Assembly (NCBI GenBank): GCA_964016885.1
Contig: OZ024752.1
Span: 37,944,001-38,008,000, forward strand
From: Eledone cirrhosa
Taxonomy: Eukaryota
DNA: 64,000 nt
Direction: 5' to 3'
In this document: piece by piece, positions 4,227 through 42,489 of the stretch
Numbering within the stretch: the first letter of the stretch is position 1
Layout of the letters: each line of letters starts with the position of its first letter
Notes under the pieces: generated by a model
The model's database searches: none
Told to the model about the DNA's origin: nothing
The model's input: the letters and a program-made list of their open reading frames with translations, nothing else
Translations under genes and position numbers: made by a program

Positions 4227-4295
4227 TTGAATAGCAAGATCGGTAATATTCAAGGCTTCAGTTAACTTTTTTAATATTGCTTTTTGATCATTCAA
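4227..4295 (-). CDS. PROM1: Prominin-like exon downstream of the array: LNDQKAILKKLTEALNITDLAIQ
   Basis: Acceptor ttttattccag, donor gtaagt; 69 nt, phase 0-0, compatible with every cassette. Confidence 0.85.
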
Positions 4296-4367: not shown

Positions 4368-5057
4368 TCTAAACTATAATAAAGTAAGGAGTGCAGGACT
4401 GCGTACGGCTTATTTCTTTTAATCCAGTTAATAAAATAAGTTGGATTACTTTGAATAAATGATGAATGAATATTACATAATTTATCTACTAAATTTCGTA
4501 GCTGTTGATTAAATATATTTTATTACTTATTTAAAGATTCACTTCTTTAAAATTTTCAAATGTCAACACTTCCTGTTAGCGATTGCTTATATCAACATTC
4601 ATATATTTCCGTCACTAATTTCCTCCTAATGCAGTTTATATATAACATCGTCTTTTTTTAATGTAACATCGTCTTTTTTTAATTAATCAGTAACGTAATC
4701 ATGGATTACGTTACTGATTACATAAGACAGTGTAACACAGTCTTCGTTCAATTTCTGTGTATATTGTCAATTATGATTTTATTTGATGTATCATATCTAC
4801 ATGTATATATACTTGCGTATAATATCAATATGCACACTACACATGCTAGCATATCTACATGTATATATACTTGCGTATAATATCAATATGCACACTACAC
4901 ATGCTAGCATATCTACATGTATATATACTTGCGTATAATATCAATATGCACACTACACATGCTAGCATATCTACATGTATATATACTTGCGTATAATATC
5001 AATATACACACTACACATGCTAGCAGAAAACCACCCGAAGGGTGGTTTTTCTGCTAG
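4368..5057 (+). mobile_element. Non-autonomous Helitron with internal ~58 bp tandem repeat; copies at 41749-42286 (+) and ~50356-51359 (-, interrupted by SINEs)
   Basis: A|TC 5' end (tctaaactataataaag), 3' hairpin gcagaaaaccacc-cgaa-gggtggtttttctgc followed by CTAG|T. Confidence 0.75.
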
Positions 5058-7599: not shown

Positions 7600-7674
7600 C
7601 CGACTATAATTTGAAATAAGTTTTAGGTCTCGGACATACTTTCTGAGATCATCACAATTAGGACATTTCTTCTC
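7600..7674 (-). CDS. Cassette mini-exon 19: EKKCPNCDDLRKYVRDLKLISNYSR
   Basis: ttttacag/gtatgt, 75 nt, open phase 0-0, CxxC; most similar in pattern to the template segment. Confidence 0.8.
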
Positions 7675-8421: not shown

Positions 8422-8487
8422 CTTAGCAAACCGATCAACAGCTCTTATAAAATCCTCCTCAGTACAAGAATCACAATCCAAGCACGG
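8422..8487 (-). CDS. Cassette mini-exon 18: PCLDCDSCTEEDFIRAVDRFAK
   Basis: ttttacag/gtatgt, 66 nt, open phase 0-0, CxxCxxC. Confidence 0.75.
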
Positions 8488-9499: not shown

Positions 9500-9562
9500 C
9501 TGAGATAAATTTTTAAGAGCTTCATCGTATTGAAGTCCTTGACAAATGTCGCAGTCCCATAC
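9500..9562 (-). CDS. Cassette mini-exon 17: VWDCDICQGLQYDEALKNLSQ
   Basis: ttttacag/gtatgt, 63 nt, open phase 0-0, CxxC. Confidence 0.73.
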
Positions 9563-10950: not shown

Positions 10951-11016
10951 CTCATTCAAATCATTAATAGCGTTTAAGAAATCATCATCAGTACATTCAA
11001 TGCATTCCTTGCACGG
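10951..11016 (-). CDS. Cassette mini-exon 16: PCKECIECTDDDFLNAINDLNE
   Basis: ttttacag/gtatgt, 66 nt, open phase 0-0, CxxCxxC. Confidence 0.75.
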
Positions 11017-12003: not shown

Positions 12004-12069
12004 CCGAGATATACTTGCAAGACTTTCTTCAAAATTCAGTCCCATGCAAATACCGCAATCCAATAGCGG
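12004..12069 (-). CDS. Cassette mini-exon 15: PLLDCGICMGLNFEESLASISR
   Basis: ttttacag/gtatgt, 66 nt, open phase 0-0, CxxC. Confidence 0.75.
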
Positions 12070-12716
12070 CTGTAAAATGTTATATTCTATAAGTCAAGTT
12101 AGATTGTAGTATTAGGTCAAGGACAGTCAATCTATCTAATAATCGACTCAGACTGATCCCTGGGGCTCTTGTTCCTATTATAATCCGGACACGATAATCT
12201 CTCCAGTGCTGGTGCCACAAACGATACATCCACTATACCCTCTAAGATGGTTGGTGATAGGAAGGGCATCCAGCAGTAAAAAAACTATACTGAAAATGGG
12301 TAAAAGAAGTCTTCAGTTGTATCAAGTGGTCAGTAGCTCTGCTTGTGTAATTTTTCTTGTATAAAAGGCAACTGCAATTATGTACCTTAGGTGTTGTAAC
12401 TAACTCACAGTGGTAGGGTTAGGATGTGTGTGTCCATATTCTCAGGTGGCCAGAGATCCTGGTACTCTCTCAAAATATGTGGAGCATTCTGTACTGGTGA
12501 ACCATACTAGCAGGCTCCTGCTGGACACAGCCCCCTGTGGTGAATCATGCCGTATCAGTCATCTTTGCCATGCTCAGCTTCAATCTCCAGATCTGGAAAT
12601 ATGTTGCCATTACTAACTTGGTGTATGTGAACCCTTCCTACCCTTTCAAATAAGGAGAACAGATGTTAAATGACAATGATGTACAGTGACAACAATTAGA
12701 AGTTTCACGAACATAC

Positions 12717-12773
12717 CTTATTATTAGGTAATTTCGGTTTGTGTTTGTTACAAAATCTGCAATGATCATTCAA
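12717..12773 (-). CDS. Cassette mini-exon 14: LNDHCRFCNKHKPKLPNNK
   Basis: ttttacag/gtatgt, 57 nt, open phase 0-0, CxxC. Confidence 0.72.
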
Positions 12774-13928
12774 CTGTAAAATATTATATTGTATATAAGA
12801 CAAGTTAGACTGTTATGTTAAGCCAAGGACAGTCAATTTATCCAATGATTCTCTCAGACTGATCCCTGGGGTTCTTGTTCCTTTAATTAATCATGACAAC
12901 ACCCCTAGTGCTGGTGTCACAAAAACTACATCCAGTTAAGGTGGTTGGTGATAAGGAAGGCATCCAGCTGTAAAAACAATACTGAAAATAGTTGAAAGTT
13001 TTCAGTTGTGTCAAGTGGTCAGTAGCTCTGCTTGAGTTATTCTTTTATAAGAGACATCTGCAATTATGTGATGTCCCTTAGGTGTTGTAAGCAGCTTATG
13101 GTGGTGGGGTTAAGAAGTGTGGGGTCCATAATCTCAGGTTGACAGAGATCAAGGAACACTCTCAATATATGCTGAACAGTCTGCACTGGTGAGCTACCCT
13201 AACAAGCTCCTGATGGTCACAGCCCCCAGCAATGCATAGCTGCCTCAAATTGGCCAACACTTGTGTGTAGCTGATTCAGGGACCCCCACTCCTTGTAAGG
13301 GTGGTTAGGACCTTATTGGGGGGTGACATTCAATAGGGCAGATCAAGATGTCTCTCTCCATGTCTGAAGTATGTTGAAATCTGTGTCTCACAGCTCTGAA
13401 ATGTCATGAGGGATTTATGGCAGTAAATGATTAAGTGCTGTAGGCTCAGTAATTGAGAATTCTCAGCCATGTCATGGAGCAGATGACTTGGGTCTATTCA
13501 GGCCTTGGTTTTCAACCTACGTGTATGATGATCCAGCACCATACAGGAGGTGTAATCCACAGCACTGAAGATCAAGATAGGGTACTGGTATGTGGGGTGG
13601 ATGTGCTAGCACCTCATGATGAACTTGCCAAGCAGTGTAGAAGGTTGTTGTTCACAGACACCTTTGTATGTAAAGACTCGAGGTGGTGTCTTCGATCAGC
13701 TGTGAGTCCAATTTCATCCCCAAGAAAGATGATTTGGTGATTGACTTCATTCAGGTAGAATGCCATATGAGACATCTATGTCATGCCCAGCTTTAAACAC
13801 CAGGTCTTGAAATATGTTGCCAATACTGATTTTGTGTTTGTGAACCCTTCCTACCCTTGCAAATAAGGGGAACAGATGTTAAATGATGATGTACAGTGAT
13901 AATGTAATTAGAAACTTCAGGAACATAC

Positions 13929-13994
13929 CCGAGTTAAATTCTTTATTTCTTTGTTAAAATTAAAATCACTGCATATACTGCAATCCTTGTGAAT
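13929..13994 (-). CDS. Cassette mini-exon 13: IHKDCSICSDFNFNKEIKNLTR
   Basis: ttttacag/gtatgt, 66 nt, open phase 0-0, CxxC. Confidence 0.75.
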
Positions 13995-15330
13995 CTGTAA
14001 AATGTTATATTGTCAAGTTAGATTGAAGTGTTAAGCCAAGGACAGTCAATCTATCTAATAATCCCTGGGGCTCTTGTTCCTTTCATCATAATTACGACAC
14101 GACAACCTCTCTAGTGCTGGTGCCATGAAAAATACATCCAGTATACCCTCTAAGATGGCTTGTAATAGAAATGGCATCCAGAAGTATAAACCACACTAAA
14201 AAGAGTTGAAAGTGATCAGTAACTCTGCTTGAGTTATTTTTTTTTGTGTAAGTTACAGCTGCAATTATGTGATGTCCCTTCGGTGTTGTAACCAGCTCAC
14301 GGTTGTGAGATTAGGATGTGTGGAGTCCATAGTCTCAGGTTGAAAGAGATCTGGGCACTCTCTCAATATATGCTGAGCAGTCTGCACTGGTGAACTACCC
14401 TAACAAGCTCCTGATGGACACAGCCCCCAGCAATAAATGGCTGCATTGAATTAAGTGACCACAGTATGTGGCTGATTAGGGACAACCACTGCCCCACTAA
14501 TAGATGTAGCTCCCAGGAAGTGGGTCCTATTGGAGTTGACACTCAATTAGGCACATGAAGATGTTTGTTGCTAGCTCGCTCTCTATGTCTGAAGTATGTT
14601 GAAATCTGTGTCTCGTAGCTCTGCAGTGTCACGAGAAATTTAGGACAGTATGAGATCAAGTGTTGTTGGCTCAGTAGTTGAGAATTGTCTGCGGTGTCAT
14701 GGAGCATATGATTTGGGTCTATTGAGGCCTTGCTTATAAACCTATGAGTGTGATGTTCCTTATGAAAAGGTGTAGGAAAAATATGTGAGAGAACAGGCAG
14801 ATACTTGGTGCAAGATGGAGACAGCCAGTGATGACCTTTAACGTGTTGTTTAGGGATATATTAAGCTTCTTAAAGTGGGAGCCCTTGCACCATTCAGGGG
14901 ATGTATACTTCACAGCAATGTAGGCCATAATAGGGTACTGGAATGTAGTGTGGATGTGCTAGCACCTCATGATAAACCCGCCAAGCAGTGTAGAAGGTTG
15001 TTGCTCATTGACACCTTTGTATATAAGGACTTAAGGTGCCATGAGGTAAGTCAGCTCTCAATCCAATTTTTCTCTGAGATATGATTGCATGGCGTTATAT
15101 ATGAGTGGTGTGACATTGAGGTTGACGCTGAGCTGGTAATTGGCCTCCTTAGTATTCAGCTGGACTATTGGATTCATTGATTTTGCCACACAAAGCTCCA
15201 ATCTGCAGATCTTGAAATATGCTGCCAGTGCTGACATGTTTGTGAACCCTTCCTACCCTTTCAAGTAAGAAAAACCTATGTAAAATGATGTTGTACAGTG
15301 ACAGCATAATTAGAAACTTCAGGAACATAC

Positions 15331-15414
15331 CGGGGTAAAATTTGAACTCAAAATTTCTTCTTCTTCTATTTCTGAGGCATCATAAAAGTCACAATCAGTG
15401 CAAAATACGAATAT
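15331..15414 (-). CDS. Cassette mini-exon 12: IFVFCTDCDFYDASEIEEEEILSSNFTP
   Basis: ttttacag/gtatgt, 84 nt, open phase 0-0, CxxC; seen at end of ORF 15319..15534. Confidence 0.75.
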
Positions 15415-16089
15415 CTGTAAAATGTTACATCTTATATTAGTCAAGTTAGATTGTAGTGTTAGGCCAAGGACAGTCAATATATAATGATTGGTACAGAACG
15501 ATCCCTGGGCTCTTGTTCCTTTTATCATAATCATAACACAACAAACTCTCTAGTGTTGGTGCCACGAAAAATAGATCCAGTATACCCTTTAAGGTGGTTG
15601 CACTTCATGATAAACCTTCCAAGCAGTGTAGAAGGTTGGTTGTCATGGACACCTTTACATGTAAGGACTCAAGGCGCTGACAGTAGGTCAGCTATCAGTC
15701 CAATTTCACTCCAGAAAGGAGGGTGTAGCGTTATATGGGAATGGTATCCCATTGAGGTTAATGTTGATCTGGCGATTGGCTTCCTTCAGATGGAATGACC
15801 TATTAGTCATCTTTGCCATGCTCAACTTCAATCTCCAGATCTTGGAATATGTTGCCAGTACTGACTTGGTGTTTGTGAAGCCTTCCTACTCTTGCAAGTA
15901 AGGGTAATGGATGTTATATAATGAAGATGTACAGTGATAATGTAATTAGAAGTTCCAGGAACATACCTCATTTACACTTTGTACTGACTTGGTGTTTGTG
16001 AAGCCTTCCTACTCTTGCAAGTAAGGGTAATGGATGTTATATAATGAAGATGTACAGTGATAATGTAATTAGAAGTTCCAGGAACATAC

Positions 16090-16152
16090 CTCATTTACAC
16101 TTTGAACATGGTCAGGGAAGTTGAATCCCGCACAAAAACCGCAGCTCAATTC
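16090..16152 (-). CDS. Cassette mini-exon 11: ELSCGFCAGFNFPDHVQSVNE
   Basis: ttttacag/gtatgt, 63 nt, open phase 0-0, CxxC. Confidence 0.75.
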
Positions 16153-17077: not shown

Positions 17078-17140
17078 CATATTATTGTATTCAGCTCTTT
17101 CAAAATCCCATTTCGTACAGTTTTTACAATGCTGGTACTT
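17078..17140 (-). CDS. Cassette mini-exon 10: KYQHCKNCTKWDFERAEYNNM
   Basis: ttttacag/gtatgt, 63 nt, open phase 0-0, CxxC. Confidence 0.75.
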
Positions 17141-17845: not shown

Positions 17846-17911
17846 CTCAGTAAATTCTGTAATAGCTTCATCGCAAGCGTGTCTGTTACACAGAGAGCAA
17901 TCCATGTATTG
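17846..17911 (-). CDS. Cassette mini-exon 9: QYMDCSLCNRHACDEAITEFTE
   Basis: ttttgcag/gtatgt, 66 nt, open phase 0-0, CxxC; seen at end of ORF 17834..18034. Confidence 0.75.
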
Positions 17912-18999
17912 CTGCAAAATGTTATATTTTATATTAGTCAAGTTAGATTGTAGTGTTAGGCCAAGGACAGTCAATCTATCTAATGATTGACACAGAATGA
18001 TCCCTGGGGTCGTTGTTCCTTTTATTATAATCATGACACAACAAACTCTCTAGTGTTGGTGCCATGAAAGATACATCCAGTATACCCTTTAAGATGGTTG
18101 GTGATAGGGTGAGCATCCAGCAGTAAAAAGAGTTGAAAGGAGTCTTCAGTTGTATCAAGTGGACAGTAGCTCTACTTGAGTAATTTTCCTTGTATAAGAG
18201 ACAGCTGCAATTATGTGATGCCCCCTAGGTGTTGTCACCAGCTCACGGTAGTGGGATTAGGATGGGTGAGGTCCATATTCACAAGTGGGCAGAAATCTAA
18301 GCACTCTCTCAAAATACGATGAGTATTCTGCACTGGTGAACCATACTAGCAGGCTCCACCCCAGCAATGCATGGCAGTAGAATCTGTCAACCTGGTGTGT
18401 GCAACTGATTCAGGGACACCCTCTGAGACTGAGGAAGGTTATCGCCTGGTTTGAGGGGTGTAGGAACAATGTGTGAGAGAACAGGTCGATACTCAGTCTA
18501 AAATGGAGACAGCCAGTGATAACCATCAAGGTGTTGTTTAGGGATATATCTAGCTCCTTTGTGAGGGAGCTCCAGCAGCATACATGGGAGGTGTACTCCA
18601 TAGAACTGTAGACCCAGATAGGGTACTGGTATGTATGGTGGATGTGCTTGCACCTCATGATAAACTTTCCAAGCAGTATAGAAGGTTGGTCATCACGGAC
18701 ACCTTTGCATATAAAGACTCAAGTCGCTGACGGTAGGTTAGCTGTCAGTCCAATTTCACTCCAAGAAAGGAGGGTGTCGTGTAATATCGGAATGGTATCC
18801 TATTGAGGTTAATTCTGAACTGGCAATTGGTTTCCTTCAGGTATCAATCATGCCCAGCTTCAATCTGCAGATCTTGAAATATGTTGCCAGTATTGACTTG
18901 GCTGTTTGTGAACCCTTCCTACCCTTGCAAGTAAGGGAAATGGATGTTAAATGATGATGTTGTACAGTGACAATGTAATTACAAGTTTCATGAACTTAC

Positions 19000-19065
19000 C
19001 CCAACAAAATGTTTCTTAGTCTTTTCATAACTGTGTCTCCCACAATAAATGCAATTTTGGAATTT
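19000..19065 (-). CDS. Cassette mini-exon 8: KFQNCIYCGRHSYEKTKKHFVG
   Basis: ttttacag/gtaagt, 66 nt, open phase 0-0, CxxC. Confidence 0.75.
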
Positions 19066-19739: not shown

Positions 19740-19805
19740 CTGACTTAAAGTAGAAACTTTTCGATTGTAATTGAGTCCTTCACAAATACTGCATTCCAAT
19801 TCCTC
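19740..19805 (-). CDS. Cassette mini-exon 7: EELECSICEGLNYNRKVSTLSQ
   Basis: ttttatag/gtatgt, 66 nt, open phase 0-0, CxxC. Confidence 0.75.
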
Positions 19806-20961
19806 CTATAAAATGTCATATTTCACACGAGTCAAGTTAGATTATTGTGTTAGGTCAATCTATCCAATGATTGACACAGACTGATCCCTGGGGCTCTTGT
19901 TCCTTTCATTATAATCACGACACGACAACCTCTCTAGTATAGGTGCCATGAAAAATACATCCAGTACATCCTTCAATGTGGTTGGTGATAGGAAGGGCAT
20001 CCAGCAGTACAAAATATACTGAAAAGGGTCGATATTCTCAGGTGAGCAGAGATCCGGCGGATACCTTCACAATATATCTTGAGCTTTCTTCCCATGCAAA
20101 CCACACTAGCAAGGTGCTGATGTACACAACCCCCGGTGGTGAGTGGTTGCATGCCTTATCAGTCATATTTGTCATATTCAGCTTCAATCTCTTGGGTCTA
20201 TTCAGGCATTGGTTATCAACCTATGTCTGTGATGTTCCAAATGAAAAGGGAGGGAACAATACCTGAGAGAACAGGTAAATACCTGGTGTAAGATGGGGAC
20301 ATCCAGTGATAACCCTCAAAGTGTTGTTTAGGGATATATCTAGCTCCTTTGTATGGGAGCCCCTGCACTATACAGGGGAGGTGTACTTCACAGCAATGTA
20401 GATCCAGAAAAGGTACTGGTATGTAGCTGTGCTAGCACCCTATGATAAACCTGCCAAGCAGTGTAGAAGGTTGTTCCTTGTAGACACCTTTGCACATAAG
20501 GACTCGTGATGGTGTTTATAGGTCAACTGTCAGGCCAATTTCACTAAAAAAAAGGAGTGGTGTTATATGGGAATGGTATTCCATCGAGGTTAATACTGAA
20601 CTGGCAATTGGCTTCCTTCAGGTGGAATGACATATCAGTCATTCTTGCCATGCTCAACTTCAATCTCCAGATCTTGAAACATATTGCCAGTACTAACTTG
20701 GTGTTTGTGAACCCTTCCTATTCTTGCAAGTTAAATGATGATGTGCAATGATAATTGTTTCTACATTTGGCACAAGGCCAGCAATTACCCAGTACATTAC
20801 TGGTACTTTATTTTATCGACCATGTAAGGATGAAAGGAAAATTTAACCTCGGCAGGATTTGAACTCAGAACGTAAAGGGACGTAACTATGCTGGAAAGCA
20901 TGGCGTCCACGGCCCTTGATGATGTACAATGATAATGTAATTAGAAACTTCATAAACATAC

Positions 20962-21039
20962 CGGAGTAAGATGTGAAGTATCTCCTCTGGCTTTGGCAAT
21001 CTCTCTGTTATCAGTACAATTATTGCAAGCCATGTACCA
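20962..21039 (-). CDS. Cassette mini-exon 6: WYMACNNCTDNREIAKARGDTSHLTP
   Basis: ttttacag/gtatgt, 78 nt, open phase 0-0, CxxC. Confidence 0.75.
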
Positions 21040-22423: not shown

Positions 22424-22489
22424 CTCAGTTAATTTCCTCATATCTGTTTCAAAATCAAGATCCTCGCAAGTTTTGCAATCATTGTACAT
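22424..22489 (-). CDS. Cassette mini-exon 5: MYNDCKTCEDLDFETDMRKLTE
   Basis: ttttacag/gtatgt, 66 nt, open phase 0-0, CxxC. Confidence 0.75.
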
Positions 22490-23258: not shown

Positions 23259-23324
23259 CTGAACAAAATGTTCATCAATTTTTTCCAGAGTATGGTCCGT
23301 ACAATTTTTACAATGCTGGTATTT
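23259..23324 (-). CDS. Cassette mini-exon 4: KYQHCKNCTDHTLEKIDEHFVQ
   Basis: ttttacag/gtatgt, 66 nt, open phase 0-0, CxxC. Confidence 0.75.
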
Positions 23325-23852
23325 CTGTAAAATGTTATATTGTATATGAGTCAAGTTAGATTATAGTGTTAGGCCAAGGACGGTCAATCTATCCAATGAT
23401 TGACACAGACTGATCCCTGGGGCTCTTGTTCCTTTCATTATAATCACGACAAAACAACATCTCTAGTATAGGTGCCATGAAAAATACATCCAGTACATCC
23501 TTCAATGTGGTTGGTGATAGGAAGGGCATCCAGCAGTACAAAATATACTGAAAAAGGCTCGATATTCTCAGGTGAGCAGAGATCCGGCGGATACCTTCAC
23601 AATATATCTTGAGCTTTCTTCCCATGCAAACCACACTAGCAAGGTGCTGATGTACACAACCCCCAGTGGTGAGTGGTTGCATGCCTTATCAGTCATATTT
23701 GTCATGCCCAACATCAATCTCCAGTTCTTGAAATATTTTGCCAGTACTGACTTGGTATTTGCGAACCCTTCCAACCCTTGCAAATAAGGGGAACAGATGT
23801 TAAATGATGATGTTGTACAGTGACAATGAAATTAGAAGTTTCAGGTACATAC

Positions 23853-23918
23853 CTTAGTAAAATTTTCTACATCTTCATCACAAGCATGTTTGTCACAAAT
23901 AGAGCAATCCATGTGTTG
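23853..23918 (-). CDS. Cassette mini-exon 3: QHMDCSICDKHACDEDVENFTK
   Basis: ttttacag/gtatgt, 66 nt, open phase 0-0, CxxC. Confidence 0.75.
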
Positions 23919-24546: not shown

Positions 24547-24603
24547 CTTAGCAAAATCTTCAAGATGAATTTTGTAATCTTTTTCACTGCTATTCATGTA
24601 CAG
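24547..24603 (-). CDS. Cassette mini-exon 2: LYMNSSEKDYKIHLEDFAK (no Cys)
   Basis: ttttacag/gtatgt, 57 nt, open phase 0-0. Confidence 0.68.
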
Positions 24604-25938
24604 CTGTAAAATGTTATATTGTATATAAGTTAAGTTAGATTATAGTGTTTGTCCAAGGACAGTCAATCTATCGAATGACTGACTTAGACTGATCCCTGGG
24701 GCTCTTGTTCCTTTTATTATAATCACGACATGACAATCTCTCTAGCATTATTGCCACAAAAGATACATCCAGTATACCCTTTAAGGTGGTTGGTGAAAGG
24801 AAGGGCATCCAGCAGTAAAAAACTATACTGAAAATGGGTGAAAGAAGTCTTCAGTTGTATCAAGTGGACAATAGACCTGCTTGAGTAATGTTTCTTGTAT
24901 AAAAGGCAACTGCAATTATGTGATGTCCCTTAGGTGTTGTAACCAGTTCATGGTAGTGGTATTAGAATGTGTTGGGGTCTATATTCTGAGGTTGGCAGAG
25001 ATCCAGGAACTCTCAATATATGTTGAGCAGTCTGCACAGGTAAACCACACTGACAAGCTGCTGATAGACAACCCCCAGCAGTGAATGATAGCATTGAATC
25101 AGACATCACCTGTGTCTAGCGGATTCAGAGACCACCACTTCCTGTAAGGGAGGTCAGCGCCTGGAGAGAGAATTGTATGGAGGATGATATTCAATAGGGA
25201 AGATCAAGATGTTTCTCTCCAAGTCTGAAGTATGTCAAAGTCTGTGTCTCGCAGCTCTGCAGTGTCATGAGATTTAGGACAATATTACTTTAAGTGTTGT
25301 TGGCTCAGTAATTGAGAATTCTCAGCCATGTCATGGAGCAGATGATTCAGGTCTATTTAGGCCTCGGTTATCAACCTACGTGTGTGATGTTCTCTATGAA
25401 AAGGTGAATGAACAATGTTTGAGAGAACAGATAAATACTTAGTGTAAGATGGAGACATCCAGCGATAACCATCAAGGTGTTGTTTAGGGATATATCTAGC
25501 TCACATACAGGGGAGGTGTACTTCACAGAACTGAAGATCAAGATATGTACTGGTATGTAGGTTGGATGTTCTAACACCTCATGATAAACCCGCCAAGGAG
25601 TGTAGAAAGTTGTTGCTCATTGACACCTTTCCACGTAATGATTGAAGATGGTGTCTATTGGTCAGCTGTCAGTTCAATTTCACTCTGAGAAAGAAGGGTG
25701 TGTTGTTATATGGGAATGGTATCCCATTAAGGTTAATGCTGAACTGGCAATCGCCTTCCTTCAGGTGGAATGTTATATCATTCATCTGTATCATGCCCAG
25801 CTTGAATCTTCAGAGTTTGAAATATATTGCCAGTTCTGACTTGGTGTTTGAGAACCCTTCCTACCCTTGCAAGTAAGCGGAACAGATGTTAAATGGTGAT
25901 GTACAGTGAAAATGTAATTAGAAATTTCAGGAACATAC

Positions 25939-26004
25939 CAGTCGAAAATCTCTTACGGCTTTTGCAAAACCGGGTCCAGCACAATCTTTGCAATCCATGA
26001 TCCA
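25939..26004 (-). CDS. Cassette mini-exon 1: WIMDCKDCAGPGFAKAVRDFRL
   Basis: ttttacag acceptor, gtatgt donor, 66 nt, open phase 0-0, CxxC. Confidence 0.75.
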
Positions 26005-27712: not shown

Positions 27713-28320
27713 TTATGATGACACAACAACATTTCTGGTGCTGGTGCCACAAAAAAAATACATCCAGTATACCCTTTAAGGTGGTTGTTGATAGGAAGGG
27801 CATCTGGCAGTACAAACCACACCAAAAAGTGTTGCAAGGAGTCATCAGTTGTGTGAAGTGGTCAGTACTTCTGCAAGGGAGGCATATTCCACAGCACTGT
27901 AGACCAAGATGGGGTACTGGTATGTAGAGGGGATGCGCTCGCACCCCATGATAAACCTGCCAAGCAGCATAGAAGGTTGTTCCTTATAGACACCTTTGCA
28001 TGTAATGACTCGAGGTGGTGTCTATAGGTCAGCTGTCAATCCAATTTCACTCCAAGATATGATAGTATAGTGTTATATGGAATTGGTGTGACATTGAAGT
28101 TGACGCTAAGCTGGCAATTGGTCTCCTTAATATTCAGGTGGAATGCCATAACAGTCATCTTTGCCATGCTCAGCTTCAATCTCCAGATCTTGAAATATGT
28201 TACCAATACTTACGTGGTCTGTGACAAACTTACCTACTTATGCAAGTAAAGAGAACAGATGTTAAATGATGATGATGATATATAGTGACAATGTAATTAG
28301 AAGTCTTTTTACGAACATAC

Positions 28321-28517
28321 CATACTAAAATTTGCAACAACGTCTGAAGACATGACATGGCTCCTGAGTATACTACAATTGCTGCAATTTACCAACCGCT
28401 CGAGAATGACACGTTTTATGTGAGTCAAGTTATATTGTAGTATTCGGCCAAGCTCAGTCAATCTATCCAGTGATAGAGTCAGATCCTTCAGAGGACCTCT
28501 TAGTCCTTCTAATTCCG
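28321..28517 (-). CDS. PROM1: Prominin-like exon, template of the cassette array: (T)ELEGLRGPLKDLTLSLDRLTELGRILQYNLTHIKRVILERL|VNCSNCSILRSHVMSSDVVANFSM
   Basis: Acceptor tttttttttag, donor gtatgt; 197 nt, phase 1 to 0; internal candidate donor gtaaat at 28392-28387. Confidence 0.88.
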
Positions 28518-29279: not shown

Positions 29280-29363
29280 TTTCTCCAAATTTATTTATTT
29301 TATCCAATACTCTAGTTACACCGATGCTCTTATCAAGTGAGTCCATAGACATATTAACAGCAT
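29280..29363 (-). CDS. PROM1: Prominin-like exon: (H)AVNMSMDSLDKSIGVTRVLDKINKFGE
   Basis: Acceptor ttttgttatttag, donor gtaagt; 84 nt, phase 1 to 1, open frame. Confidence 0.85.
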
Positions 29364-30123: not shown

Positions 30124-30190
30124 GGTCGAGTTTATACGTTAGACTTTTATTTAGAGTTTTCAATTCAACTTTAACAACTGTCCGTGTTTC
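30124..30190 (-). CDS. PROM1: Prominin-like exon: ETRTVVKVELKTLNKSLTYKLD
   Basis: Acceptor ttttcatcaacag, donor gtaaga; 67 nt, phase 0 to 1, open frame. Confidence 0.85.
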
Positions 30191-31572: not shown

Positions 31573-31699
31573 TTCAATTGTGCTATCAATATATTTCCCA
31601 ACTATGTCAGCACTTTTAGCCAATTTGTCTAATATGTCTGAGTCAATAAAACGTTTTTTATAAAGTCCATTTGTTACAAAAACACAGACAACAGCATAT
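31573..31699 (-). CDS. PROM1: Prominin-like exon, end of TM2 and start of large extracellular loop: (L)YAVVCVFVTNGLYKKRFIDSDILDKLAKSADIVGKYIDSTIE
   Basis: Acceptor aatttcag, donor gtaagt; 127 nt, phase 2 to 0; FVTN motif after TM2 is typical of prominins. Confidence 0.9.
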
Positions 31700-32402
31700 C
31701 TGAAATTAGATTTAAAAAAAAAAGTTTTAATCTAATTAATATTTTCAATGGGTGGGCTGAAAAGTTCATAGGCTAGCTGTCTATGAAGGGTTGATGCTAG
31801 AACTGTTAAAATTGTGTGCGTATTAATCTCAATTCTGTTTATTAATAACTGCATTGTTTCTTTCCAGGGACTATGTTGAAAAATAAACCTCATTTGGTCA
31901 TTCCATGAGAGTATCTTGGTCAGACTAAGAACTTTTCAGCTGACCCTCATAGTAACAGCCAAACTGAAAAAAAAATAATTTCATCAAGAAAATCAGTTTA
32001 CAGTTAAATGGCAAGCAGTAGGAATTTGTAAAAGTATATTCCAACAATATGCATATTTTAGGCTTGCATGAACCAGTCTTCCTTTTCATTGTTTTTGCAG
32101 CTACTTTTCCAAAGTGGCATGGGTTGGATGAGACAATGTTTTATAGTCAGATGGCCTTTCTGATGCCAACTCTTTAGTTGCCTCTTATAATATACAGGGA
32201 TACGGTGTATATATTCTAGAAACCAGGATACAAATGTAATGGCATAAATAATCATTATCATTATCATCATCATCGTTTAATGTATATATTCCCATGCTAG
32301 CATAGGTTGGATACAAAACTGGTAGGTTTTAATAACAACGTGAAAATACACTTTGGTTTTTAAACTTTTCATCTAAAATCAATTCAAGATTTTAATATTG
32401 AT

Positions 32403-33652: not shown

Positions 33653-33858
33653 AATATGATTGTGGTGAAAATAACAATAAACGTAGCGTAGCATCTTCTT
33701 TTATATCGAGCATTTTTGGGATCATGTTTCCTTCTTCGTCCTCCACATTTATTTAGGTTTCGACAACAGCACAGGCAAAAGCCAATAAGAGGTATTACTA
33801 CAACAAAGACAATCCCAATGGCAACACAGATAGCAAAGCCAATGAGATACCTCAGTGC
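33653..33858 (-). CDS. PROM1: Prominin-like exon with TM1, Cys-rich loop and start of TM2: [68 protein letters not shown]
   Basis: Prominin-type PLIGxxxCCCRxxxKCGG signature; acceptor cattgcag, donor gttagt; phase 0 to 2. Confidence 0.93.
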
Positions 33859-40479: not shown

Positions 40480-41505
40480 TCTTTCTTCTCAGCACTTGTG
40501 AGGGCAAGCTCACCTTTATCATTCTAGATACCCTTATCTCCAATGATATCACAATTCTCACTGACACACTGCCTCGCAATCTTGAACACCTCCTGTTTCT
40601 GGTCCTCACGTTGCAAAACATGCTTGAATTTTCTATCTTGCGCTTCCCTTCTAGCTAAGTATACTTGTCGCCTAGCTTCCCTCCTGGTCTCTATGTAATG
40701 TACCCTGCTTCCCCCGTTCTCCATTCTTTCCATGCCTGTCTCTTAGCCTTAACTGCCTCATCTACCTTATTGTTCCACCACCAAGTCACTCTCCTCCTCC
40801 CTGTGGTCTTGCTCCAGCCACAGATCTCGTCCGTCGCCTTTAGTAAGTTATTTTTTAGGAACTCCCATTGCTCTTCTACTTTGAATGTCTCTATCTGTTC
40901 TTCTTTACTGTCATAGGCGTTGAGTAAAATATCTTTAAATCTGTTACTGGCTTTCAGCTTCCAGATCTTTCTTCTCCAGGTTGGCTTCTGTTTCCAGGTT
41001 CGTCTAGTTCTGACAGTGAGATTGCTGACAACTAAGCTATGTTGGGAGGTACATTCCTCACTAGGGAAGGCTTTTATGTTTACGACCATCCATCTGTCAC
41101 GTCCTCTGATGAGGATAACATCTATCTGACTAGAATGCTCCCCTGATCTATAGGTGATCAGATGGTTGTCGGGCTTTTTGAAGTTTGTGTTACATATCGA
41201 CATGTCATTGGCGTCACAGAATTCTAGAAGCCTGAAGCCTTCTTCATTTCTTGTGCCAAATCCGTGGCCTCCATGGACACTATAGAAGCTGTCACGGTGT
41301 TTACCTAGATGTCCGTTAAAATCTCCTGCAATGATTAGGAAGTCACTGTCGTTTGTTAGGGCAGTAGTGTGCATTAGGGACTCGTAAAACCTATCCTTAA
41401 ATTCGTCTGGCAACCCCAATTGGGGTGTGTAAGCTGATATTATTGTGGCAATTGTTTTATTCAGGACTAGTCTGAGTTTAATGATTCTTGTGTTCACCCT
41501 GTTCA
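40480..41505 (-). mobile_element. RTE LINE fragment, AP-endonuclease region
   Basis: IISAYTPQ..IAGDFNGHLG..RNEEGFRLLEFC..SQIDVIL..SQHSLVV; frameshift near 40700. Confidence 0.92.
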
Positions 41506-42489
41506 TATATATATATATATATATTATGTAAGAAACTGTCTGATGAGAACATGGCACTGGATACGTGAAATCGCGTGGCCACTGTTGTCATTGAAATATG
41601 TATCAGAGCCTTATCAATAAAGTATTTTGACATCTGAATCTACTTCGCATTTTCTTATTCTCTCTCTCTCTCTATATATATATATATACAAACACACACA
41701 CACACACAAATATTACAGAAAACAAACAATATTAATTATATAATGTAATCTAAACTATAATAAAGTAAGGAGTGCAGGACTGCGAACGGTTTATAATTTT
41801 TTATCTCATTAGTAAAATAAGTTGGATTACTTTGAATAAATAATGAATGAATATTAGATAATTTATCTACTAAATTTCGTGGCTGTTCATTAAATATATT
41901 TTATTATTTATTTAAAGATTCACTTCTTTAAAATTTTCAAATGTCAACACTTCCGGTGACGCTCGCTTAAATAAACATTAATTTTCTGTCACTAATTTTC
42001 TCCTAATGCAGTTTATATATAATATCGTCTTTTTTTAAACGTATCATGGATGACGTTACTGATTACATAAGACAGTGTAACACAGTCTTCGTTCAATTTC
42101 TGTTTATATTGTCAATTACAATTTTATTTGATGTATCATATCTACATGTATATATACTTGCGTATAATATCAATATACACACTACACATGTATCATATCT
42201 ACATGTATATATACTTGCCTATAATATCAATATACACACTACACATGCCAGCAGAAAAACCACCTGAAGGGTGGTTTTTCTGCTAGTATATATAACAAGG
42301 CACAGAAGTAATCAGAATGTACAGATATTGACAGTATTGAGAGAGGGTCAGACACCATGCTTTGCAACATAGAGTTATGACCCTTTACGTTCTGAGTTCA
42401 AATTCCCGCCGAGGTTAACTTTGCCTTTCATCCTTACGGGATCGATAAAATAAAGTACCAGTAATGCACTGGAGTAATTGCTTTCCTTG

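Follow-up and report, generated by a model that had tools for sequence, protein, structure and literature searches.

A single intron of a prominin gene in the octopod Eledone cirrhosa contains 19 short, exon-like cassettes that resemble the end of the exon preceding them. This arrangement raises the question of whether one cassette can be spliced in place of that end, whether cassettes are instead added to it, or whether they no longer contribute to the mRNA. We addressed this question in a window of 64,000 nt (contig OZ024752.1, positions 37,944,001 to 38,008,000 of the forward strand). All of the exons, splice sites, and pairing arms described below lie on the minus strand of this window (i.e., transcription proceeds from high to low positions).

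The prominin locus and its cassette array

The exon at 33653 to 33858, which encodes TM1, a Cys-rich loop, and TM2, matched the Prominin profile PF05478 (33655 to 33858; 62.4 bits versus a cut-off of 34.3; E = 3e-17) and aligned with cephalopod prominins at 62 to 69%. A family search of the genome assigned PF05478 to this locus and to a single paralogue (on C2), and the locus is the genome's best match to the O. sinensis prominin segment that was searched (70% versus 45%). The relatives named here are prominin-1-A of Octopus sinensis, O. vulgaris, O. bimaculoides, and Argonauta hians. Exons matching all of the TM regions of O. sinensis prominin-1-A are colinear across the locus, and the five TM segments and two large extracellular loops expected of a prominin occur in order; the N-terminal exons and a few loop exons of the gene were not located at the locus.

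The constant exon at 31573 to 31701 (boundaries predicted from the sequence; tblastn, 44 to 49% to relatives) covers the end of TM2 and the start of the first large extracellular loop and is followed by constant exons at 30124 to 30190 and at 29280 to 29363 (U1; phase 1-1). The next exon, here called T (28321 to 28517; 197 nt; phase 1-0), is orthologous along its full length to an exon of other octopods and is present as one full copy in the genome. The intron from T to the next constant exon, D1 (4227 to 4295; phase 0-0; 54% to relatives), is 24,025 nt long, and two further constant exons, D2 (2758 to 2821) and D3 (1367 to 1428), are predicted from splice signals and an open frame. A search with T alone found no relatives longer than T, and the sole match among cluster representatives, a SEA-repeat mucin, was set aside as unrelated. 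An exon equivalent to the CxxC exon is also present in the second prominin gene (positions 4460 to 4669 of a C2 segment), with no array of copies of that exon in 70 kb, and the cassette unit has no match in the genome outside the prominin locus. Elsewhere in the window, a 298-codon open frame (40691 to 41587) resembles the endonuclease part of a non-LTR retrotransposon.

The 19 cassettes (26004 down to 7600) are 57 to 84 nt long, in every case a multiple of 3, and are of phase 0-0, stop-free, and flanked by AG and GT, at a spacing of 528 to 1388 nt. Those encoding 22 amino acids (aa) are c01 (25939 to 26004), c03 (23853 to 23918), c04 (23259 to 23324), c05 (22424 to 22489), c07 (19740 to 19805; its acceptor ends in TAG, a stop if read as coding), c08 (19000 to 19065), c09 (17846 to 17911), c13 (13929 to 13994), c15 (12004 to 12069), c16 (10951 to 11016), and c18 (8422 to 8487). 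The remainder are c02 (24547 to 24603; 19 aa), c06 (20962 to 21039; 26 aa, the ancestral length), c10 (17078 to 17140; 21 aa), c11 (16090 to 16152; 21 aa), c12 (15331 to 15414; 28 aa), c14 (12717 to 12773; 19 aa), c17 (9500 to 9562; 21 aa), and c19 (7600 to 7674; 25 aa). A CxxC motif is found in 18 of the 19. In the exception, c02, both cysteines were lost together, in keeping with a disulfide linking the two, and a third Cys occurs in c03, c09, c16, and c18. A 123-bp exact tandem duplication after c11 (15858 to 16104) repeats the donor GAG|GTATGT and the last bases of the exon; use of this second donor would add 123 nt.

Alignment indicated that each unit is a decayed copy of the whole of T (T and the units are ~70 to 80% alike), with the intron upstream of every cassette corresponding to the 5' part of T, and that the cassettes match only its last 26 codons. 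The copies lost the upstream acceptor, and the new cassette acceptor arose from the old I-L-Q codons of T (28399 to 28408; CATTCTCGAG in T versus cattttacag in the cassettes). The first-pass annotation of this DNA had the homology begin right after an internal donor in T; the CxxC segment is included as it held, but the homology starts two codons upstream of that point, at R-L. The decayed upstream part is open over 35 codons in only 2 of the 19 units, and we therefore rejected the cassettes as whole-exon alternatives. In c07, c08, c16, and c18, the acceptor was kept although reading through it meets a broken frame or a stop.

In a majority reading, the decayed part of the units (84 nt before each cassette, compared with 28399 to 28482 in T) matches the four octopod orthologues better (19 to 20 of 28 aa) than T does (15 to 17 of 28), which suggests that T itself has changed fast since the duplication. 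The units are also mosaic, the similarity of flanks being uncorrelated with that of exons (rho = 0.00 and −0.11). The upstream introns assigned to c04 and c07 (23325 to 23721 and 19806 to 20191) share a 397-nt stretch of 93% identity that ends right where the exon begins. The c04 exon itself resembles c10 and c08, as in an exchange at the acceptor boundary.

Judged from their sequences, the cassettes behave as selected exons. Exon identity was below that of both flanks in 171 of 171 cassette pairs (means, 0.47 versus 0.84 and 0.79), and the eleven 66-nt cassettes share identities of 0.52 at the DNA level and 0.24 at the protein level. By a conservative event count, the frame was kept in 6 of 6 exon length changes versus 7 of 31 flank indels (P = 0.0007), the flanks carrying 24 frame-breaking indels among the 31. 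Under neutral drift, the probability of all 19 remaining open is 0.014 at flank-like divergence and 1e-6 at exon-like divergence. Synonymous sites, too, are far more diverged than the flanks, and since this divergence is high and the units are mosaic, homogenization of the flanks may explain part of the contrast between exons and flanks. The pooled dN/dS ratio was ~1.1 on an imperfect alignment, so that positive selection is unproven. Hydrophobic residues were kept at cassette positions 13, 17, and 20 in 11, 9, and 11 of 11 cassettes, respectively (combined P = 0.10, not significant versus drift).

Splicing of exon T and its candidate internal donor

Four runs from one study (X1 to X4) contain T. 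None is recorded as RNA, and X2 to X4 behave as DNA; X1 was taken as RNA on the grounds that a GT-AG intron of 762 nt is missing from its contig and that the genome has a single full copy of T. In this contig (1,946 nt; depth, 28.6), 29363 to 29280 is joined to 28517 to 28321 across the 762-nt intron, which fixes the ends of T, and the upstream loose end coincides with the 3' end of the exon at 30124 to 30190. The next 30 letters after 28321 are those of D1 exactly (30/30 nt) and not those of c14, which starts alike. The terminal donor of T (ATG|GTATGT; 28315 to 28320) is thus in use, and the read-through variant that the first-pass annotation had proposed is borne out by the direct joining of the whole of T to D1 (at 4295). 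In this single sample (X1), the main form reads through T and skips every cassette.

The single spliced contig contains no cassette module and no cassette-bearing junction, either from the end of T to a cassette or from 28393 (the lack of the latter counts against replacement); X1 has little power here, since contigs drop rare forms and cassette use split 19 ways would be faint. X1 also contains unspliced pieces in the array at a depth of 2.6 to 4 (12329 to 12479, 12750 to 12900, 13891 to 14101, 18621 to 18889, and 25700 to 25850). These pieces are either pre-mRNA or DNA, and two of them overlap c13 and c14 together with introns. The X1 depth of the cassette units was low or zero in several cassette bins and was not counted as evidence. 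We rejected an assembly artefact, as DNA-like contigs, perhaps from the assembly's own sample, cover c03, c04, c11, c12, c14, and c15 with 0 to 3 differences.

Within T, the minus strand reads CTC GAG CGG TTG|GTA AAT TGC, and the GTAAAT (28387 to 28392) lies on a codon boundary in phase 0, as had been described. The part of T upstream of this candidate donor (ending at 28393) reads ..GAGCGGTTG, and the 3' end of T (28321) reads ..TTTAGTATG. Joining 28393 to a cassette would remove 72 nt of T for a net change of −5 to +4 aa, depending on the cassette (−2 aa in 11 of the 19), so that the earlier expectation of a single CxxC and near-normal length holds. The junction itself, likewise predicted, was not seen in X1, whose sole contig on 28285 to 29420 has no branch or loose end at 28393; the position, phase, and rank of the site give circumstantial support to its use. 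It is also the only usable in-frame entry for replacement, because U1 ends in phase 1 and the cassettes begin in phase 0. A direct U1-to-cassette join was accordingly rejected for its frame clash, and the GT at CGT|GTCATT was rejected as an entry donor because it falls outside the ten best phase-0 sites.

The strength of the site was scored with a matrix based on human donor frequencies and not trained on octopus sequences, and the 15 of 18 annotated exon ends with GT at the boundary were taken as real donors. The internal donor scores 4.99 and the terminal donor of T 7.43; the former is higher than 2 and lower than 13 of the 15 real donors. It is without +5G and −2A, and the terminal donor is both stronger and nearer to the cassettes, all of which weighs against replacement. 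On the other side, only one other of the 92 internal GTs in 621 codons of the gene scores higher, and that site, AAG|GTAAAT further down the gene, is probably a true exon end. With random codons, an equally good phase-0 site would fall at most 3 codons from the acceptor-equivalent point with a probability of 0.019; given the protein sequence of T, this probability is 0.098 (~10%), a value that is counted against replacement. We consider the internal donor to be moderately beyond chance.

Comparisons with relatives point both ways. The Val codon of T that supplies the GT corresponds to K, Q, or N in five relatives, which favors replacement, although such a derived Val is weak evidence because two-base codon changes are common in T; GTA is the third codon in 1 of the 19 cassettes. 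O. sinensis is 2 aa shorter than O. vulgaris at this place, and the tolerance of relatives for a change in length likewise speaks for replacement. Against it, the segment is invariant within each species among the annotated isoforms of O. sinensis, O. vulgaris, O. bimaculoides, and Argonauta. In a local fold, the internal donor is mostly unpaired and the terminal donor partly paired, to which we gave little weight.

On this evidence, we tentatively favor the internal donor as the entry through which one of the 19 cassettes replaces the last 24 codons of T, a reading to which we assign somewhat less than an even chance. As the best explanation, it rests on the donor motif, the intact cassette frames, the origin of the cassettes as copies of T, and the read-through mRNA. 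The interpretation in the first-pass annotation thus stands only in part. Its mutually exclusive mode has no strict basis, in that we found no steric or reading-frame block to joint inclusion, given the cassette spacing and the lengths in multiples of 3.

Intron signals around exon T and the cassettes

The intron downstream of T differs from its counterparts after the cassettes in carrying the T-specific sequence TAG|GTAAGT (28228 to 28236; boundary, 28234|28233), a candidate recursive splice site that replaces the L arm of the cassette units (see below). It lies 159 nt from 28392 and 87 nt from 28320, i.e., 87 nt into the 24,025-nt intron that it would subdivide. The site reads tctgttctctttacttgcataagtag|GTAAGT, and thus has a pyrimidine tract (11 of 17) and an AG directly before GTAAGT, with TAG in place of CAG and an AAG 3 nt upstream. 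Its donor score of 11.0, versus 7.4 for T's own donor, is in favor of replacement, and it is the only [CT]AG|GT[AG]AGT on the gene strand in 124 kb (two occur on the other strand). A second T-specific GTAAGT (CAC|GTAAGT) is located at 28208 to 28213. In simulations from the unit consensus at the divergence of T, two GTAAGT arose with a probability of 0.0004, one with 0.039, and two sites scoring at least 7 with 0.030. As plain donors, 28233 and 28213 were rejected, since either would lead to a stop after three codons.

The candidate recursive site could accept 28392, delete the tail of T together with the competing donor, and leave TTG|GTAAGT at the junction. Such a step would ease replacement because it would remove the difficulty of why a cassette joins a weak, distal donor. 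The candidate was found after the fact, and it could equally accept 28320.

The cassette acceptors that were checked have 6 to 8 pyrimidines of 17 versus 13 to 14 in constant exons. In the unit consensus, an 8-bp hairpin (AGTCAATC / GATTGACT) lies ~60 to 85 nt before each cassette acceptor, and a CTAAC branch-point-like motif at about −33 is well kept; T reads TATAAC.

Long-range pairing was examined in a docking scan of 779 windows, in which the upstream flanks were tested for partners and showed no dock. A docking site for these flanks in T or in single-copy introns was rejected, as the best value, −18.6 kcal/mol, was no better than that of unrelated windows. The scan gave one strong partner for the downstream flanks (median, −25.3 kcal/mol). 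In the intron from T to cassette 1, an R arm (27787 to 27804; CCCTTCCTATC) is complementary to L arms such as that after cassette 1 (25853 to 25869; GGTAGGAAGGG), and similar L arms follow 18 of the 19 cassettes. An R arm lies ~175 nt before most acceptors and an L arm ~65 nt after most donors, and for 9 of 13 folded units the stem of R and L surrounds the cassette with a mean probability of >0.5. Both arms derive from a common repeat, with pairing energies of −14.1 kcal/mol for generic copies, about −22 for the array, and −6.8 for the L arm of T. The L variant has 11 exact genome copies, six of them in the array, versus 34,194 generic ones.

Several findings count against a dedicated function of this pairing. 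With 1,096 copies, the R variant is common genome-wide, R arms were not found for 4 of the 19 units, the arms are many-to-many, and the arm changes arose once, before the duplication; conservation was supported for L (P = 0.012), while R was no better conserved than its neighbors (P = 0.56). The pairing fits default skipping of the cassettes, as well as the route from exon duplication to competing structures described in PMC6071210. The same arms could also bring neighboring cassettes together.

Proposed replacement, its alternatives, and comparable systems

Replacement might proceed as follows. The cassettes would be skipped by default, their acceptors being poor in pyrimidines and a repeat-derived stem being able to enclose each one. 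In some tissue or state, the internal donor would be used, possibly via a 159-nt splice to TAG|GTAAGT that removes the 28321 competitor and regenerates a strong donor, after which mostly one cassette would be taken, owing to weak acceptors and competing arm pairing and not to a strict lock. The variable tip may be under pressure from an outside binder. For O. sinensis prominin, a low-confidence AlphaFold model with a mean pLDDT of 40 has a helix at residues 184 to 295 followed by the CxxC turn and suggests that the CxxC segment is the predicted tip of the first large extracellular loop; no solved structures matching the prominin profile were found. Taken as a whole, this would be a partial-exon substitution, in which the whole ancestral exon is the default, a new internal donor with a recursive step and stems swaps in one of 19 hypervariable tips, and one octopod lineage would have turned a housekeeping membrane protein into a variable surface receptor with 20 forms. 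So complete a scenario we consider doubtful.

Additive inclusion is a plausible competitor, although we think it less probable than replacement through the internal donor. The internal GT would then be a chance site, and the cassettes would be optional symmetric exons after the 28321 donor (none, one, or several per mRNA), with extra CxxC modules following the native one. Stacking would need no change in T, since a copy with its acceptor at I-L-Q was in frame after the whole of T at once, and it would use the donor that is both shown in use and stronger than the internal one. The lack of a steric or frame barrier suits it and counts against replacement, and an L arm can pair with the R arm of the next unit and so bring neighboring cassettes together. 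What stacking leaves unexplained is the position and rank of the internal donor and the T-specific, donor-like pair downstream; the added modules would also come without the long helix predicted, in a low-confidence model, for the 5' part of T. The single spliced contig likewise has no T-to-cassette junction, and the main form in X1 cannot be one with all cassettes included (422 aa). Replacement and stacking may coexist.

The array might alternatively be a relic, used once and now silent, with the T-side signals incidental. We regard this as unlikely. It would account for the spliced contig without cassettes, and the pyrimidine-poor acceptors and a dN/dS ratio near 1 are in line with it, but all 19 cassettes are open with intact AG/GT, 18 have CxxC, and none has a frameshift, in contrast to the frame-breaking indels of the flanks and to the upstream parts, of which so few stay open. 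Least probable, in our judgment, is that the units serve at the DNA level as sequence donors to T, by gene conversion or deletion, the decayed 5' region and the intron downstream providing the homology arms. Unit flanks are indeed homologous to T on both sides, and the mosaic units (as in c04 and c07) suggest exchange; however, the limited similarity of T to the units and the four acceptors kept despite a broken frame or a stop argue against such a role, and no clean T-to-cassette joint occurs in the DNA-like runs among the matches listed.

As in mutually exclusive clusters, the homologous exons here stand in tandem, share their phase, and differ little in length; whole-exon alternation between two constant exons is not, as the cassettes cannot follow U1 in frame. 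The array works like a variable array of the TEP or Dscam type but is not a member of that class, since whole-exon alternation fails. As described in PMC7016707, BgTEP2 of Biomphalaria glabrata (12 mutually exclusive exons over 30 kb) and the TEP of Chlamys farreri (6) are, like the present case, mollusc tandem arrays of variable length that change fast and affect one exposed segment. The TEP exons alternate whole, with variants known from transcriptomes, whereas the cassettes here are the 3' third of T and would need an internal donor, and no cassette transcripts were seen in the X1 contig. In Drosophila Dscam, srp, and related clusters, which rely on docking-site/selector or bidirectional RNA pairing (PMC6071210), exon duplication copies stem-loop arms and creates competing pairings, and here, too, units carry an R and an L arm; unlike Dscam and srp, the arms come from a common repeat and pair many-to-many, and no unique docking site was found.

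In Drosophila Ubx, exon 1 ends in two alternative donors, and the gene also has optional micro-exons and recursive splicing at (Y)nNCAG/GUAAGU (PMC3245913). It shares with the present locus alternative upstream donors, small symmetric exons, and a juxtaposed acceptor/donor motif. The Ubx micro-exons are added and not swapped, and its ratchet point is inside a 52-kb intron, whereas the motif here is 87 nt from the donor and reads TAG. Genes of the ROCO-LRR type, in which each module has its own exon and the exons are shuffled, under diversifying selection, and alternatively spliced, are a model for additive inclusion; they encode repeat-domain proteins whose modules stack naturally, whereas prominin has one CxxC turn at this place. 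Mammalian Prominin-1/CD133 belongs to the same family and has short optional extracellular exons, but exons 3, 11a, 19, and 22 are single and unrelated and not an array of homologous variable copies (PMC5049760). Our literature search, with supplements and subscription journals outside its scope, found no paper that describes the present array or a set of homologous cassettes served by an internal donor.

The locus escapes any annotation based on the major transcript. Variable arrays such as those of Dscam and the TEPs swap whole exons; use of the internal donor would show another route, in which a copied exon retains no more than its exposed third and yet serves as a substitute, the parent exon being the default. 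Prominin is present in the ink of O. vulgaris (PMC10142993). If replacement is true, prominin would have a variable surface and would be a candidate for variable recognition in cephalopods.
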